Shown here: positions 22,843-33,698 of the stretch, in pieces
Layout: the number at the start of each line of letters is the position of its first letter
Numbering within the stretch: position 1 is the stretch's first letter
Source: Fidelibacterota bacterium
GTDB lineage: Bacteria > Fidelibacterota > Marinisomatia > Marinisomatales > UBA2128
Direction of reading: 5' to 3'
Assembly (NCBI GenBank): GCA_046861645.1
Contig: JBHHUM010000009.1
Span: forward strand, 1 to 52,145
Length of the DNA stretch: 52,145 bases
Program-made: the position numbers and the translations under genes
Notes under the pieces: generated by a model
The model's database searches: none
The model's input: only the letters and a program-made list of their open reading frames with translations
Told to the model about the DNA's origin: nothing

Positions 22843-24600
22843 GTGCCAACACTTGTCATTAGAGTTCTGTCTATTTTGCTTACCGGAATGGTAGGTTTGC
22901 CACCAGTTGTTTTAGCAGAGGGAATTATTTTCTCTGATATATCTATTGAAGCTGGAATTATACATTCCATCAGTGGTGAGGGCGTTTGCATCTTTGATTA
23001 TGATGGAGACGGCTGGAGTGACATCCTTGTGGCAGATTTTAACGGTCAGAATCTGTTGTACCATAATCTTGGTGATATGACTTTCGAAGAGGTAAGCGCT
23101 GAAGCTGGGCTCGCTACTGGAGAAAGTACCCGGCTGGTATTAGCTGGGGATTATGACAATGATGGCGATGTTGACCTCTTCATGGGAGTTGTTCAAAACT
23201 CCTCTCTTCTGTTTCGAAACAATGGCGATGGTACCTTTACAGATGTAACCACTGTATCGGGTATTTACAATGATTCTGACATTAGAGGTGGGGCATGGTG
23301 TGACTTTAATAATGATGGCAGTCTCGATCTTTACCTGGCTAATCTGCATGATAACAACCGTCTTTACCAGAATAATAACGATGGAACTTTTACTGATGTG
23401 GCGACAGAATTAAATGCTCTGGGTCCAGCTGCAACAGGGTTGGTTATGGGACTTGCAATTCTCGATTTCGATGGAGATCATGATAGTGATATTTTTATGA
23501 CACAGGATGGTTACAAGCGCAATTTCTTACTCAGGAAGGAGAGTTCTGGTAATTTTTCGGACTATTCTGAAGAAGCAGGTATTGATATTGAAGTTCAAGG
23601 GATGGGGGTTGCCTGTGGAGACGTCAATGGTGACGGATGGTTTGATGTTTATACTACAAATCTTGATGAGAACTCCCTTTTTCTAAACCAGGGTGATGGT
23701 ACATTTCTTGAAATAGAAGAAGCTGCTGGTGCGGCAGACGAAGCTATGAGTATGAGCTGGGGTGTCTTCTTTTTTGATGCTGATAACGATGGCTGGCTTG
23801 ACATTTTTTCCAATAATCAAAGCGGTTTCGGTCAGGTCCCCAGCTCCTTTTTCCATAATCTTGGGGATGGTACTTTTGAGGAATTGAGTAACACTTCTGG
23901 TCTGGAGCTATGGAACGATGGCATTGGTTGTGCTTATGGAGATCTGGACAACGATGGGGATATTGATTTATTTCTTGCTGGCACGCCTACAGAGAATGGA
24001 TCGTTACACCTTTTGCGTAACGATTCAGCACCGGCTAACTGGATTCAATTTACGCTGGAATACTCCACGGGTAATACTGCAGCAATTTCGTCACTGGTAC
24101 ATGTCTATTCAGGAAATATCGTCAGAACTTCCTTCGTATCAGCGGGAGATGGATACTGTTCTCAGAATACCTTACGGCAACATTTTGGATTGGGTTCATC
24201 GACCATGGTAGACTCAGTAATCATTATCTGGTCCGGTGGAGAGACTCAGGTTTTTGGACCGTTTTCAGCCAACCAGCACTATCTACTCAGTCAAGAATTC
24301 GGAGGGATTTCCCCTGACAATAACTTATTTCTACCTCAACAAACAGTTCTATATCCTCTCTTTCCTAATCCGTTCAATTCTCAGACCAATATTACATTTG
24401 CGCTGCAGAAAGTGAGTAATGTCGATCTGACTATTTATGATCTAAAGGGCCAGGTGGTTAAGGAGCTGATCAGGCAATCCATAGGAGAAGGAATTTATAA
24501 AGTTAAATGGAAAGCTTCTGACGTGCCTACGGGGTTATATGTTGTCGTACTTTCAGCTGATAACAGGACCAATGTTCAAAAAGTGATACATTTAAAGTGA
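22843..24600 (+). CDS. FG-GAP/VCBS repeat, ASPIC-UnbV (CRTAC1-like) protein with T9SS-type C-terminal domain
   Basis: Repeated DYDGDGWSD/DYDNDGDVD/DFNNDGSLD; QHFGLG; FPNPFNSQTNITF...GLY C-terminal domain. Confidence 0.87.
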   Translation: MPTLVIRVLSILLTGMVGLPPVVLAEGIIFSDISIEAGIIHSISGEGVCIFDYDGDGWSDILVADFNGQNLLYHNLGDMTFEEVSAEAGLATGESTRLVLAGDYDNDGDVDLFMGVVQNSSLLFRNNGDGTFTDVTTVSGIYNDSDIRGGAWCDFNNDGSLDLYLANLHDNNRLYQNNNDGTFTDVATELNALGPAATGLVMGLAILDFDGDHDSDIFMTQDGYKRNFLLRKESSGNFSDYSEEAGIDIEVQGMGVACGDVNGDGWFDVYTTNLDENSLFLNQGDGTFLEIEEAAGAADEAMSMSWGVFFFDADNDGWLDIFSNNQSGFGQVPSSFFHNLGDGTFEELSNTSGLELWNDGIGCAYGDLDNDGDIDLFLAGTPTENGSLHLLRNDSAPANWIQFTLEYSTGNTAAISSLVHVYSGNIVRTSFVSAGDGYCSQNTLRQHFGLGSSTMVDSVIIIWSGGETQVFGPFSANQHYLLSQEFGGISPDNNLFLPQQTVLYPLFPNPFNSQTNITFALQKVSNVDLTIYDLKGQVVKELIRQSIGEGIYKVKWKASDVPTGLYVVVLSADNRTNVQKVIHLK

Positions 24601-24655
24601 AAGTTAGAAGCACTCTTGGATAACATTCCTTAAAAAAGTAATTTCGAGGGATCCT

Positions 24656-25615
24656 ATGACGAGAAAAAGGTATTACTGGACACTTTTACTTTTAATCGTG
24701 TTACCGGTATGGTTACTCCCTCAAGGAGGTGTTTCCTGAAGGATTCCCATCCTCCCGGTCGGGAGCCTTGCCGAAAGGAACAGTGCTGAGACTGGAAAAC
24801 TGGTTGTAGGGATAGGTTATAAATATGAGTATCTTGCAGATGTAAGGGTGAAGAGTACTTCCTGGGAAAATCCGAATCATGAACGTACCAATAATTCCGC
24901 CTATATGTTTTATCTCAATTATAGTCTTTCCAATAATTTCTCTGTGGAGGCACTTGTACCCTGGCAGATAGTTACTAACGAAAAGATTCTATTCCCCGGG
25001 CAATATTCTCATCAACCTCAGGGTGGTAAATATGTTCGACATGCACAGGGTATGGGGGACGTGGTTATCATGGGACGCTATCAATTCAACATAAAGATGG
25101 CTCAACTTTCTGTTGGATTGGGTGTGAAGCTGGCAACTGGTGATTCTGAAGCGATGGATGATTTTGGAGTTCGTATTTCAGATAATCTTCAAATCGGTTC
25201 AGGTACGGTGGATCCTGTTTTCCTGATTTTTAGTGCCTATCCGGGAAACAAATGGTTATTCCTGGGAAATCTCTTTTCACGTATTCCACTCCGAGAGAAC
25301 ATCTATGGCTATCAATATGGAGCTGAGTCCCATGTCAACCTGGGTGTCAATTATGATCTATCAGATCTTATCTTCCTGAGAGGGAATCTGAACGGGATTT
25401 TTACGTCTCGGGATAAGTACCAGTATGGAGAACCAGAGTTTAGCCGGGGAGGGCGTTGGTTATATTTTATTCCAGGACTTGGAATAAGGTTGACACGTAT
25501 GCTGACAATGGATTTGCAATATCCTTTTCCGGTTTACCAGTATGTAAACGAAAGTCAACTGATCCCCACAGATCTAATGACAGTGAATCTCAGTTATACA
25601 TTAAAGGTAAAATGA
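24656..25615 (+). CDS. Outer-membrane beta-barrel (MetA-pathway-of-phenol-degradation-like transporter family) with in-frame UGA28, putative selenoprotein
   Basis: ATG 24656 encodes signal peptide MTRKRYYWTLLLLIVLPVWLLPQGGVS, then TGA (24737-24739), then continues in frame (RIPILPVGSLAERN...) into the 24848 ORF; barrel motifs GMGDVVI, GLGVKLATG, QIGSGTVD. Confidence 0.75.
24739..24769 (+). promoter_or_regulatory. Bacterial SECIS-like hairpin
   Basis: CTCCC-GGTC-GGGAG stem-loop (24752-24765) with GGUC at +21..+24 counting the U of UGA as +1; basal AAGG/CCTT pairing. Confidence 0.7.
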
Positions 25616-26700
25616 TGAGGTTAAGATTCATACTGATGACGCTTTTTCTATGGTCTTGTTCAGAATCCATTAACACATATTATGCCTTTGAAGATTTTGA
25701 TATTTTGAAGGTAGGTAGCCGTATCACTGATCTTGCTATCACTCCTGATGGTAAACTACTCGCAGCGGCAGATATGTCTAACAACAGGGTAATCCTAATT
25801 AATGTGGAGCATGAGATGGAAGTAGTGGCTCGAATCTGGGTAGGTTCGGAACCGAAATCGCTCGATATTTCATCTTCCGGGGATACTCTTTTTGTGGGAC
25901 TCTATGGTAGTTCTGAGATTGCTATTGTGGACCTTGATGAACTCGCTTTGTTGGGTACTTTCCAAGCTGATGAAGATGGTCCTTATGACATCGTCTGCCT
26001 ACCGGAAGGAAAAATCATAGCTTCATTTCTCTCAGACTATGCCCATAATAACAAGACAAAGTTATTCAATCTTTCATCTTCAGCAGCACTCTCCAGTAAA
26101 AATGCTGCTGGCCCACTTACTGTTTCTTCTGATAAGTCTACCTTATTCGTGGCTGATGATTTTTATGGTCCGGTTAGGTTAAACCGTTTTGATATTTCTG
26201 ATAGCAATCTAACGAACCAGATTTATTCTTCGCCGATTGCTGAAGAGGTATCTTTTCATGATATTCTGTTTGTACCTGGGAAAGGTGTAACTGTTGCTCT
26301 TTCGGGGCAGGATTTCGACGGTAGTGAAGTGGATTATGCCTTTCTTTTTGACAGTGATGATCTCAATTTGAAGGCTCATCTTGATGTGAAATCACCTGCT
26401 GTCGCTTTAGCAGCAGCTTCAGATGGGAGCAGTATATTCGTATCTCCCAGCTCAGCCGATGATGCCGGATTTTTTGTTATTGAGTTTAGTACCGAGACCT
26501 ATCTTCAGGCCAACTATTATATGACTGCAGGACCTCTTGCAGAGGGGGCATTAACGGTGGATCCTACTGATGAATATCTCTATGTTGCTGTGGATGACCC
26601 CTCAGATAACGGCTCCTTTGAACCATACTCTTCCAACTCGTACGATATCCAGCGTATTAAAATTGTACCCTGGGGTACGTATCCAATTAACTCTTTCTGA
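25612..26700 (+). CDS. YncE/YVTN-like beta-propeller lipoprotein
   Basis: True start likely 25612 (ATGA overlap), MMRLRFILMTLFLWSC lipobox; repeats LAITPDGK, VGSEPKSLDISSSGD, ASDGSSIFV. Confidence 0.78.
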   Translation: MMRLRFILMTLFLWSCSESINTYYAFEDFDILKVGSRITDLAITPDGKLLAAADMSNNRVILINVEHEMEVVARIWVGSEPKSLDISSSGDTLFVGLYGSSEIAIVDLDELALLGTFQADEDGPYDIVCLPEGKIIASFLSDYAHNNKTKLFNLSSSAALSSKNAAGPLTVSSDKSTLFVADDFYGPVRLNRFDISDSNLTNQIYSSPIAEEVSFHDILFVPGKGVTVALSGQDFDGSEVDYAFLFDSDDLNLKAHLDVKSPAVALAAASDGSSIFVSPSSADDAGFFVIEFSTETYLQANYYMTAGPLAEGALTVDPTDEYLYVAVDDPSDNGSFEPYSSNSYDIQRIKIVPWGTYPINSF

Positions 26701-31202: not shown

Positions 31203-33698
31203 CTATCGGAGAAGTGTCATCTTTTTTACGACACTATGTTTACTTGTTTTGAGTTCGTAAAAGTAAACACCGCTTGCGGCGGGTACCCCATGATGATCGG
31301 TACCATTCCACTTTAACCCGTAGTTACCCGGGGCCGGAAAATCCCGCTTGTAAACGGTAACCTTCTGACCCATGATGTTATATATTGTGAATGTGACTTT
31401 GTCAGCTTCTGGGAGTGAGAATCTGATTTCAGTTGACGGGTTGAAGGGGTTCGGATAGTTTTGACTCACCTTAAATTCAGAAGGTATATTTACCGGGTCA
31501 TCAGCGGCACCCAAATCGGGTGGAGTTTCTACAGTTAGCGGTGGATCGGTTGTCCACGTATCCTGCGGAAAAGTGAAGGCTGACGGCCAGGAAATCGGGT
31601 CGATACTGGCAGGCTGGATATAACGGCAACGGTAGCGTCCGTAATCAAATCCGCCTCCTTCCTGCAGGTACCCGCCCACATTATCGCCGAATTCATACAC
31701 GTATACCATGGAGTATGGAGTGTATCCGGTAACAGAGAAGGTAACTGAGAAAATGCCATCGCTGTCAGGGTCAGTTAAGATGAGATCAGGGTGATGGCTG
31801 TTATCAGCAATGGAGAATCCTTGGATATGCTCAGCCCATTCATCTTTAAATAACAACCAAACGGTATCTTCCGTAGCATCAAAACCAAGGTTTGCAGCAG
31901 AGGACATATCAAGGTTGAATGATAGATCTATGGATTGACCCTCAGGAATAAGACCATCTGGAGGGATATCATTGTAGTATTCCAATCCGATGACCTGTGC
32001 CTGAGTTGAGTCACCTTCGAAGATATAGGAGCGATTACCGGCTCCCATAGTAGGTGGATTCTCATAGCCCATATCTTCAAAGAAGTAGGGATTTATTGAC
32101 TGAATAAGGTCAAGGGATTCGTTACTCAGTTTAATGTAGTATTTATAAGCATCTTCTGTACCAGCATACATGGTAAGTGGTACATTCAATTCATAAATAG
32201 ATGTCCCCGCAATACGGGTCATGTTAATGTTAGATCCATCAGGATCAGCTGTACTACTCCAGCCATTGAAGCCACCACGAGTTTGCATAGTATCGTCACG
32301 GGTGGGACTGAAAAGATCCATAGTTTCGTAAGCTTCCATATCCACAGTCCAGTAGACAAAAGCAGTAACAGGTTCTTCTTCCTGAGGAGGAATGTTATCA
32401 AAGTAGGCAAAAGCCAGGGTTGTATCCTGATTTATGACTACCGAACGGTTATCAATGCTCTCCCAGTGGACACCCCCATCAGGATCGACATAAACGAACT
32501 TGTATTCCTGAGTTTCTCCGGCAGTAGAATCTGGTATGCTAATGAGACCGGACCAAAAGCCTGCGTTTTCTTCAGGCACAAGTGTGTCCCCGGCAGACCA
32601 ACCGTTAAAACTACCACGAACATCCACGAAGTCGAAGTCGTCAAAAACAGCAGACATGTTAACTCGGAACCAGATGTCAAGATCAGCGGTTGGCTCGAAG
32701 GGAGCAATATCATCCCACCAGTGCAGGGGTAGAGTAGTGTCGGAAGTGATAGTAGCTGTTCTATTACTGATACTTTCCCAGAACTCCAATCCTGCCAAGT
32801 CCGTGTAACGGAACTTGTACTCAATATCGGCACCATCAGTAGTACCGACGATGTCGGTGGTAGCGGACCAGTAGTCACCAGCCGCAGTGGCAGAGTCGTT
32901 CTGGCTCCAGCCGTTCATGCTGCCGCTTACATAGAATCCGGCTATGGTGGAGTCAGTAATATTGTCCAGTGTAGCAGTATTGCAGATGAAAGTCACCGTA
33001 AAAGTATCTATTTCTGCTTCTATCGGTGGCTCGTCATTGAACCATTTCCAGGCCAGAGTAGTATCCTGATTAACAGTTACTGACCGGTTGTCAATACTCT
33101 CCCAGTTGGTGGTGGATTCATCATAGTAAGTGAACTTATACTCATGAGTGGTACCGGCATCAGTACTGGGGATAATAATAACACCGGACCAGAAATCGGA
33201 ACCATCACCTTCCTGGATGAGATCATCACCGGCAGCCCAACCGTTGAAACCTCCCCTAACATCAACCTGTTCACCGGCGTAGCCGACTACCCCAGACATG
33301 TTTACCCGAAAATAGACTTCCAGATCATCGGTGGGTGTGTAGGGAGCATTGTTATCCCAGTAGGCGAGGTCCATTAAAGTATCGGCAGAAGGAACTAAGT
33401 AAGTTCTGTTATCTATACTCTCCCAAGTCAGATTGCCAAGGTCATCCAAATGAGTGAACTTATACTCGACTGTCTCACCGGCAGTGAGTTCAATCGTGGT
33501 AGACCAGTAGTCACCTCCATCATTGGCAAGGGGATTACCATCAGCCCACCCGTTAAAGCTTCCACGGACGTGAACGGTACTCGTCGAATCTGTGGCACCG
33601 TCAGAGTAGGTGGACATATTCAGCCGGAATGTGACATTCGTGGCAAAAGAGTATGTGGCAAAGGAAAGAATAGCTAACAATAAGTAGCGTTTCTTCAT
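31203..33698 (-). CDS. Secreted multi-module starch-binding-type (CBM20-like) protein with T9SS/FlgD-type C-terminal domain
   Basis: Signal peptide; 4 clear and ~2 diverged repeats of F(R)xNMS...VRGxFNGW...W...EYKF...WESIDNR; QNYPNPFNPSTEIRF...WNG...ASGVYFY; no catalytic domain recognised. Confidence 0.75.
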   Translation of the reverse strand: MKKRYLLLAILSFATYSFATNVTFRLNMSTYSDGATDSTSTVHVRGSFNGWADGNPLANDGGDYWSTTIELTAGETVEYKFTHLDDLGNLTWESIDNRTYLVPSADTLMDLAYWDNNAPYTPTDDLEVYFRVNMSGVVGYAGEQVDVRGGFNGWAAGDDLIQEGDGSDFWSGVIIIPSTDAGTTHEYKFTYYDESTTNWESIDNRSVTVNQDTTLAWKWFNDEPPIEAEIDTFTVTFICNTATLDNITDSTIAGFYVSGSMNGWSQNDSATAAGDYWSATTDIVGTTDGADIEYKFRYTDLAGLEFWESISNRTATITSDTTLPLHWWDDIAPFEPTADLDIWFRVNMSAVFDDFDFVDVRGSFNGWSAGDTLVPEENAGFWSGLISIPDSTAGETQEYKFVYVDPDGGVHWESIDNRSVVINQDTTLAFAYFDNIPPQEEEPVTAFVYWTVDMEAYETMDLFSPTRDDTMQTRGGFNGWSSTADPDGSNINMTRIAGTSIYELNVPLTMYAGTEDAYKYYIKLSNESLDLIQSINPYFFEDMGYENPPTMGAGNRSYIFEGDSTQAQVIGLEYYNDIPPDGLIPEGQSIDLSFNLDMSSAANLGFDATEDTVWLLFKDEWAEHIQGFSIADNSHHPDLILTDPDSDGIFSVTFSVTGYTPYSMVYVYEFGDNVGGYLQEGGGFDYGRYRCRYIQPASIDPISWPSAFTFPQDTWTTDPPLTVETPPDLGAADDPVNIPSEFKVSQNYPNPFNPSTEIRFSLPEADKVTFTIYNIMGQKVTVYKRDFPAPGNYGLKWNGTDHHGVPAASGVYFYELKTSKHSVVKKMTLLR

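Follow-up and report, generated by a model that had tools for sequence, protein, structure and literature searches.

A 52,145-nt stretch of DNA from a Fidelibacterota bacterium (assembly GCA_046861645.1, contig JBHHUM010000009.1, positions 1 to 52,145; hereafter the window) contains, at 24656..25615, a gene for an outer-membrane beta-barrel protein whose frame is interrupted by one in-frame UGA just after the signal peptide. Comparison of the gene with its relatives indicates that this UGA, codon 28, is very probably a genuine and conserved selenocysteine (Sec) codon, and that the protein represents a new Sec-bearing branch of the COG4313-type outer-membrane channels. The features of the gene are listed below, where SECIS is the selenocysteine insertion sequence and AF2 is AlphaFold2.

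24656..25615, + strand: predicted selenoprotein gene, 319 codons plus a TGA stop, encoding signal peptide, Sec arm and barrel
24656..24721, + strand: signal peptide, codons 1-22, MTRKRYYWTLLLLIVLPVWLLP, assigned by eye, with probable cleavage before Q23
24722..24796, + strand: mature N-terminal arm, a presumed lumen plug, QGGVS-U-RIPILPVGS..., preceding the first strand
24737..24739, + strand: UGA predicted to be read as Sec, codon 28, residue 6 of the putative mature protein
24752..24765, + strand: SECIS hairpin, 5-bp stem CUCCC (24752-24756)/GGGAG (24761-24765) with the 4-nt loop GGUC (24757-24760)
24797..25612, + strand: beta-barrel body of COG4313/PF13557 type, from Pfam, the AF2 model and Foldseek

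Reading frame of the barrel gene

The frame opened by ATG 24656 reads MTRKRYYWTLLLLIVLPVWLLPQGGVS, TGA (codon 28), RIPILPVGSLAERNSAETGKLVVGIGYKYEYL..., and closes at the TGA stop at 25613-25615, the context of codon 28 being ...LLPQGGVS-U-RIPILPVGS. It is the frame of the annotated open reading frame (ORF) at 24848, which it extends by 64 codons in the 5′ direction. A preliminary description, made from the window alone, had proposed that this ORF, which lacks a signal peptide, extends to ATG 24656 across a single TGA at codon 28 (QGGVS-U-RIP), and both the coordinates and the frame of that extension are correct, with the TGA at 24737-24739. The signal peptide was described there as clean; a hydrophobic leader can indeed be recognized by eye, but the A-x-A that ends the leader of most orthologs (...A-x-A|QGG) is missing from the window gene.

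The mechanical ORF list begins this frame at GTG 24848, so ATG, GTG and TTG are all absent in frame from the stretch between the internal TGA and that codon. Translation from 24848 would therefore lose the export signal and the first barrel strand. The public gene call covers 24848-25615 alone, a 255-residue stump (P0003), whilst the read-through protein aligns with its relatives across residues 1-319.

Conservation of the UGA codon

A scan of species-representative genomes yielded 59 loci from 46 genomes, 13 of which have two paralogs each. The carriers belong to Marinimicrobia/Neomarinimicrobiota/Fidelibacterota (one NCBI phylum), the FCB group, Calditrichaceae, KSB1, Latescibacterota and Gemmatimonadota, and span five phylum-level lineages. 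Upstream, the frame of 58 of the 59 loci runs through exactly one TGA into a signal peptide, and these 58 share the arm consensus ...A-x-A|Q-[G/P]-G-[V/I]-S-U-R-R-P-x-L-P-G-G; in the exception (L084) the match begins only at residue 122 and the upstream DNA is unrelated. Neither Cys nor any other sense codon was found at the Sec position in any of the 58 loci. A relative from another family of the same order as the window (G016, 41% identity) also has TGA at the corresponding place, within ...AQGGIS-U-RRPVLPGG, and in an alignment of 29 sequences the mature residues U6, R7, P9, L11, P12 and G14 are invariant.

The same arrangement recurs in a sister clade, in which nine of the ten long relatives end in a C-terminal thioredoxin domain (PF00085). 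Eight metagenome loci of this thioredoxin-fused type were fetched (L087-L094), six of them with upstream DNA, and all six show a signal peptide, the motif AQVK-U-A.P.LPVG and the same hairpin, identically spaced. One of the loci (L094) has an A-U closing pair and two thioredoxin stretches. The recurrence of the UGA in homologs, proposed at the outset as a check, is thus seen in both groups.

Public databases do not reveal the motif. All 61 database homologs cover 90% of the query or less and lack its N-terminus; where named, they are called 'transporter' or 'hypothetical protein'. The chains of the 17 that were aligned start at differing makeshift codons just past the motif, and the database proteins of the thioredoxin-fused clade are likewise N-truncated. 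The expectation that standard annotation would truncate the window gene has therefore been borne out for its homologs also.

The two paralogs of the 13 genomes (Latescibacterota, Gemmatimonadota and untitled metagenome-assembled genomes, MAGs) are of a QGGVS-U and a QPGVS-U type; the loci concerned are L049, L052-L056, L060-L062, L064, L066, L067, L071, L082 and L083.

A covarying hairpin downstream of the UGA

The hairpin proposed from the window alone, CUCCC-GGUC-GGGAG, is correct in letters and spacing. It begins 12 nt past the UGA, within the codons for the conserved peptide L-P-(G/V)-G-S, and its loop occupies +21..+24, the U of the UGA being +1. The window and the other 58 loci can be aligned over this region without gaps, and the RNAalifold consensus of these 59 sequences consists of exactly the 5-bp stem and the 4-nt loop. 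A sixth pair is possible in just 33 of the 56 distinct sequences and there is no conserved lower helix.

The middle pair of the stem (columns 33-42) lies between two third codon positions, that of a Leu codon and that of the second Gly codon, both of which are synonymous. It is CG in 36 sequences, UA in 19, UG in two, AU in one and GC in one, with no mismatch in the 59. None of 500 column shuffles reached the observed covariation or percentage paired, and every measure falls when the 3′ partner is slid by 1-3 columns. Changes in the state of this pair were counted on a protein tree of 65 sequences from which the SECIS-encoded residues had been left out. The pair changes at least 15 times on this tree, and over 11 independent contrasts the partner co-changes in ∼10 and shows the opposite in none (sign test, p ∼0.002). 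The codon families themselves are constrained, the Leu codon being CUN in 59 of 59 sequences and the codon after Gly-Gly being AGN in 57 of 59. Loop sequences are GGGC (33), AGGT (16), GGGT (4), GGTC (3, including the window) and three singletons, and G stands at the second loop position in every one of the 59. The hairpin is an RNA structure under selection.

The published model of bacterial SECIS (bSECIS) elements specifies a loop of 3-9 nt, a stem of 4-16 bp, G in the first two loop positions, a spacing of 16-37 nt and a minimum free energy (MFE) of at most −7.5 kcal/mol (PMC13188914, Fig. 2 legend). The window hairpin satisfies all four constraints (4-nt loop, 5-bp stem, loop G and 17-nt spacing), and its MFE is −7.7 kcal/mol. 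The SECIS of selD in the same genome also has its loop at +21, on a far longer helix (−27.1 kcal/mol). The consensus stem-loop, its covariation and its fit to the bSECIS model together answer the question, raised with the original prediction, of whether the hairpin recurs in relatives.

Selenocysteine machinery of the carrier genomes

The source genome (G000) is 94% complete. It contains a tRNA-Sec (63.9 bits, against a threshold of 47 bits) together with selA, selB and selD, all above curated cut-offs, and its selD has an in-frame TGA of its own; each component of the Sec machinery that was to be checked for is present. Among five other carrier genomes, selB and tRNA-Sec exceed the cut-off in four (KSB1, Latescibacterota, Gemmatimonadota and Fidelibacterota).

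The selD gene lies at 25008-25934 (− strand) of contig C34 of this genome. A second, short selD N-terminus (L020) is found ∼7 kb away at 32445-32582 (− strand); it shares the TGA, and its 60-nt SECIS is identical. As it breaks off after ∼60 residues, it has the appearance of a duplicated fragment or a pseudogene.

Cysteine in distant relatives

When a profile of the mature proteins was run against 1.84 billion representatives, 2196 hits had E ≤0.001, and the N-termini of the best 150 of these were classified. Of these 150, 94 have either vicinal Cys residues (70) or spaced Cys pairs (24; CxC, CxxC or Cx3-4C) at the N-terminus, the vicinal pair directly following the signal peptide as Q-x-C-C in 67 and as Q-C-C in three. 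A further 36 are N-truncated with no signal peptide, eight, including P0091 and P0075, start like a signal peptide but have no Cys in their first 70 residues, eight have a single Cys in residues 16-70, three are short fragments with W, and one (P0190) has CC in its first 70 residues with no preceding signal peptide. A joint MAFFT alignment places Cys in the Sec column for 16 of 16 Cys-form relatives, all of them distant. The earlier suggestion that related barrels often have Cys motifs at the mature N-terminus therefore agrees with both the alignment and the classification.

Two variants were seen within the order of the window. One barrel has A-CGGGNC at this place (L024). Another, a distant barrel of paralog type in genome G020 (L027:1465-2436), reads SQ-U-PL-U-SNPTLPVGSG, with two in-frame TGAs three codons apart and a single hairpin, CUUCC-GGUC-GGGAG, 12 nt after the second TGA, the spacing found in the window. 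Because there is only this one hairpin after the second TGA, one SECIS may serve two Sec codons here.

Alternative readings of the UGA

Several observations count against decoding of the UGA as Sec. No close ortholog has Cys at this position, which is unusual for selenoproteins, and three short database fragments (P0067, P0156 and P0166; 100-172 residues) have W there (..VS-W-RRP..). This W may be encoded by TGG or, at a guess, may be a TGA translated by a table-4 gene model. Neither selB nor tRNA-Sec was found above cut-off in one carrier, a fragmented Calditrichaceae MAG, and the presence of selB does not discriminate, because it occurs in 38 of the 41 genomes of the window's order, of which six have a barrel match and only two a close one. 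The barrel hairpin is short, with −7.7 kcal/mol compared to −27.1 kcal/mol for the selD SECIS. When the surrounding 76 nt are folded by themselves, the MFE structure omits it and has ordinary stability (z −0.79), so the single sequence alone is unconvincing. Rfam gave no match to the hairpin, detecting only the tRNA of the window at the gathering score, and a permissive Rfam scan added one chance snoRNA match (E 4).

The W fragments and the weakness of the hairpin relative to the selD SECIS would also suit read-through without Sec, with Trp, Cys or Arg inserted by a near-cognate tRNA and the hairpin doing no more than slowing the ribosome so that leakage is favoured. This is the alternative that survives best, but we regard it as quite improbable. 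A hairpin acting only on ribosome speed does not account for the match to SelB-type bSECIS constraints, the universal G at loop position 2, the fixed spacing or a loop placed as in the selD SECIS, in a source genome that, like four of the five other carriers, has the Sec machinery. Were Trp or Arg enough, some of the 64 loci should have TGG or CGA, and none does, whilst the aligned residue in the distant relatives, 16 of 16 times, is Cys, the chemical analogue of Sec.

That the UGA is instead a conserved terminator, ending a 27-residue leader peptide with the barrel translated separately or under regulation, is very improbable, even though more ORFs of the window end in UGA than in any other stop and public gene callers annotate the downstream part alone. 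The barrel needs a signal peptide, and this lies 5′ of the UGA; with no in-frame ATG, GTG or TTG before 24848, a downstream start deletes the first strand. Moreover, the peptide directly after the UGA is invariant in frame, and the database versions begin at varied makeshift codons.

A single in-frame stop in one MAG usually stems from a nonsense mutation (pseudogene) or from an error in sequencing or assembly, but the comparative data refute this: the same codon stands in 58 of 59 loci and in six of six fused relatives, the downstream frame and motif are intact, and four run-level assemblies (from one sample, possibly the source, and so not independent) are identical to 24600-24900 with no differences at depths of 13.5-26.9. 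Genome-wide reassignment of TGA (code 4 or 25), for which only the open frame itself speaks, is likewise refuted, since TGA, an ordinary stop as had been claimed, ends 16 of the 29 ORFs of at least 200 residues in the window, the selenoprotein gene included, another stop following after 0 to 44 codons, and since a dedicated tRNA-Sec and selB are present.

Decoding as Sec thus remains the preferred reading. The source genome has the machinery, the homologs keep the UGA and the hairpin, and the assemblies show no error at the site; the sole contrary hint among the outcomes foreseen in the preliminary description is the W in the three short fragments.

Barrel fold and N-terminal arm

Pfam assigns the body of the protein to PF13557, though marginally (E 5.8e-5; 23.7 bits against a cut-off of 22), and most of the database homologs have no precomputed Pfam match. 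An AF2 model of the mature protein (mean predicted local distance difference test score, pLDDT, 82.7; predicted template-modelling score, pTM, 0.81) is all-beta from residue 26 onwards, and its strand list fits about 12 strands, the number in the Pput2725 barrel. The arm consists of the 25 residues before strand 1, the first 20 of which have pLDDT 54-62. Among solved structures the top Foldseek match is 4RL8, the COG4313 channel Pput2725 (template-modelling, TM, score 0.69/0.76; E 1.5e-10). In Pput2725, from Pseudomonas putida F1, ∼14 N-terminal residues are described as entering the lumen from the periplasmic side and nearly closing the channel (PMC4493636). By homology, the 25-residue Sec arm would likewise form a lumen plug.

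Gene neighbourhood and the thioredoxin link

Neighbouring genes were compared over 59 loci, the window and 58 others. The remaining features of the window that enter this comparison, together with its sole detected RNA gene, are as follows.

25612..26700, + strand: beta-propeller lipoprotein, conserved partner gene, with weak 7-bladed propeller Pfam hits, a lipobox and a CSLY..DF.IL.LG motif
22843..24600, + strand: FG-GAP/UnbV_ASPIC protein with a type IX secretion system (T9SS) sorting domain, from Pfam; recurrent upstream neighbour
9-83, + strand: tRNA-Arg (anticodon TCT), the sole RNA gene detected in the window

A propeller-type lipoprotein is the same-strand downstream neighbour of the barrel in 43 of the 59 loci. 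In the window its ATG overlaps the TGA stop of the barrel gene as ATGA (25612-25615), and overlaps of 1-4 nt are common in the orthologous loci, which suggests that the two genes are translationally coupled. A covalent Sec-Cys bond between barrel and lipoprotein was also considered; it is unlikely, because the one Cys of the L081 lipoprotein is its lipid anchor. An FG-GAP/UnbV_ASPIC homolog lies within 4 kb, on either strand, in 26 loci including the window. In 18 of the 59 loci the downstream gene encodes a SAM-methyltransferase, among them the QPGVS-U loci L052, L053 and L056.

Directly upstream of the barrel gene, 27 of the 59 loci have a Redoxin/AhpC-TSA gene, TlpA-like and with a WCxxC motif. 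In the sister clade described above the thioredoxin domain is part of the barrel protein itself. Both ends of such an outer-membrane barrel face the periplasm, and the fusion would therefore place a reductase beside the arm. Around the fused forms lie, among other genes, those for TauE/SafE, Rrf2 regulators, cytochrome c and an LVIVD propeller protein.

Similar pairs occur around Cys-form barrels of remote lineages. A plasmid of Ca. Manganitrophus has a barrel with SCGSANC, followed by a hypothetical gene and then a TlpA-type gene, in a context of nikR, cation-transporter, chromate-resistance and HupE/UreJ genes. A Cys-form barrel match was found in 128 Ralstonia plasmid records. In the Ralstonia solanacearum megaplasmid CP052127.1 (L096:4392-6450) a DUF2946 gene is followed by a PF13557 barrel with CATCGC and an overlapping AhpC/TSA-Redoxin gene, with chromate-resistance genes nearby. 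We found no literature on the function of Cys-form barrels paired with TlpA or Redoxin proteins.

Proposed function of the selenocysteine arm

The recoding signals with their conservation and covariation, the Sec machinery, the export signal, the barrel fold, the Sec/Cys hot spot at the mature N-terminus and the recurrent tie to thioredoxin-fold reductases are established by the data; the role of the selenol is deduced from them. Our preferred scheme is as follows. The UGA at codon 28 is very probably decoded as Sec by SelB and tRNA-Sec, directed by the minimal SECIS hairpin. The product would be exported, lose its signal peptide and fold into a roughly 12-stranded outer-membrane barrel of the COG4313 type, with Sec as the sixth mature residue on the conserved 25-residue arm (QGG[V/I]S-U-RRP.LPGG). 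Judging from the solved member of the family, the arm would turn back from the periplasmic side to enter the barrel lumen. The selenol on this plug could act as a redox-active nucleophile or as a soft ligand that binds passing cargo transiently, the cargo being most plausibly a thiophilic metal, metalloid or chalcogen species, and a periplasmic reductase of the TlpA/thioredoxin type could return the selenol to its reduced state. The propeller lipoprotein from the overlapping downstream gene is a likely partner.

We give a cargo-binding or redox-cycling selenol arm serviced by a reductase close to an even chance. A further reading, in which the plug is a catalytic or ligand-exchange device whose selenol captures thiophilic cargo (a metal, metalloid or sulfur/selenium species) at the pore and hands it inward, with a dedicated periplasmic thioredoxin-fold reductase, separate or fused to the C-terminus of the barrel, resetting the selenol, we hold to be rather unlikely. 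That the selenol serves purely as a regulatory redox gate or latch for the plug also appears unlikely. The suggestion of a redox- or metal-binding plug made in the preliminary description agrees, as regards the plug, with the N-terminus of Pput2725, which fills the lumen, and, as regards redox chemistry, with the TlpA/thioredoxin linkage, though each of these carries over to the window protein only by analogy. Three results weaken such schemes. The AF2 model leaves the arm unplaced, as its low pLDDT indicates. There is no adjacent TlpA-like gene in the window, the best candidate elsewhere in the genome having 34% identity (E 8e-10). Finally, the hints to cargo from gene context are few and mixed, with metal-flavoured contexts in two replicons.

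If these ideas are right, this would be the first outer-membrane channel with such a plug, chalcogen chemistry rather than passive diffusion would drive transport across that membrane, and the family would be obligately Sec-dependent across five phylum-level lineages.

Significance and comparison with known systems

With this family the prokaryotic selenoproteome appears to gain a well-supported member from little-known lineages (Marinimicrobia/Fidelibacterota, Latescibacterota, KSB1, Gemmatimonadota and Calditrichaceae). The public annotations of the family, in all the cases examined, truncate the gene and drop its export signal. Its unusual traits would be a Sec at the tip of an outer-membrane channel, the lack of a close ortholog with Cys and a near-minimal SECIS. 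Since the latter is proven by covariation at synonymous sites, it offers a clean natural substrate for studying what SelB requires. The pattern is possibly more general, in that COG4313-type barrels may have Sec, UxxU, CC, CxC, CxxC(xC) or Cx4C at the mature N-terminus, and a link of such barrels to thioredoxin-fold reductases was seen in four separate settings. Together, the N-terminal Sec/Cys motifs and the thioredoxin-fold linkage suggest a whole class of redox-serviced outer-membrane channels, which is not described in the literature that we found.

Few outer-membrane selenoproteins have been described, as the preliminary description had supposed. Table 1 of a 2026 review of the prokaryotic selenoproteome lists 119 families and subfamilies, of which two are in the outer membrane, namely GSU2204 (an MtrB/PioB-type barrel, NF041027) and a TonB-dependent receptor with an FCYXU motif (NF049945) (PMC13188914). 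Neither a PF13557-type barrel nor the S-U-RRP motif appears in that table, and 'PF13557', 'phenol' and 'COG4313' occur nowhere in the text (PMC13188914). NCBIfam release 20.0, which includes NF041027 and NF049945, gave no matches up to E 0.01 for four members translated through the UGA. No publication on selenocysteine in PF13557/Phenol_MetA_deg barrels, or on outer-membrane selenoproteins of Marinimicrobia, was found in full text. The family may be listed in the supplements of deep-Sep (PMC12013277) and BSepDB (PMC13326102) or in the BSepDB database itself. The GSU2204 family and the FCYXU receptor resemble the present family as outer-membrane beta-barrels predicted to contain Sec, but they are unrelated barrel families; here the Sec would lie at the mature N-terminus, in an S-U-RRP motif. 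For comparison with the TonB-dependent receptor, the window protein is about 300 residues long and lacks a plug domain.

The SECIS loop of E. coli fdhF, the paradigm of bacterial SECIS elements, is GGUC at +22..+25. The window element resembles it as a stem-loop in coding sequence just 3′ of the UGA with G at loop position 2. It differs in lying near the minimum of the bSECIS model, with a 5-bp stem, and in being embedded in an invariant peptide motif.

Among barrels of known structure, Pput2725 (4RL8) shares the COG4313/PF13557 fold class and an N-terminal segment before strand 1, but identity is only ∼10%, the window arm is longer (25 versus about 14 residues) and contains the invariant Sec motif, and the word 'cysteine' does not occur in the Pput2725 paper (PMC4493636). 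The genomic partners also differ from those of COG4313 channels, being a thioredoxin-fold reductase and a propeller lipoprotein rather than aromatic-degradation genes. As to the uptake of hydrophobic molecules, a feature of COG4313 channels, no degradation genes were found in the neighbourhood from the Pfam matches of the neighbours. The amyloid-secretion barrel FapF (5O65) is the second-best structural match (TM 0.64-0.68), a likeness at the level of the fold only; there is no Fap operon at the window locus, and no Sec or Cys arm is described for FapF. The nearest parallel in arrangement is with the Cys-form PF13557 barrels of Ralstonia and Ca. Manganitrophus, which also have an N-terminal chalcogen motif, aligned with the Sec, and an adjacent or overlapping thioredoxin-fold gene. 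These differ in having CxxCxC or Cx4C in place of Sec, in their identity of only 23-33% and in their location beside chromate-resistance, nikR, HupE/UreJ or DUF2946 genes.

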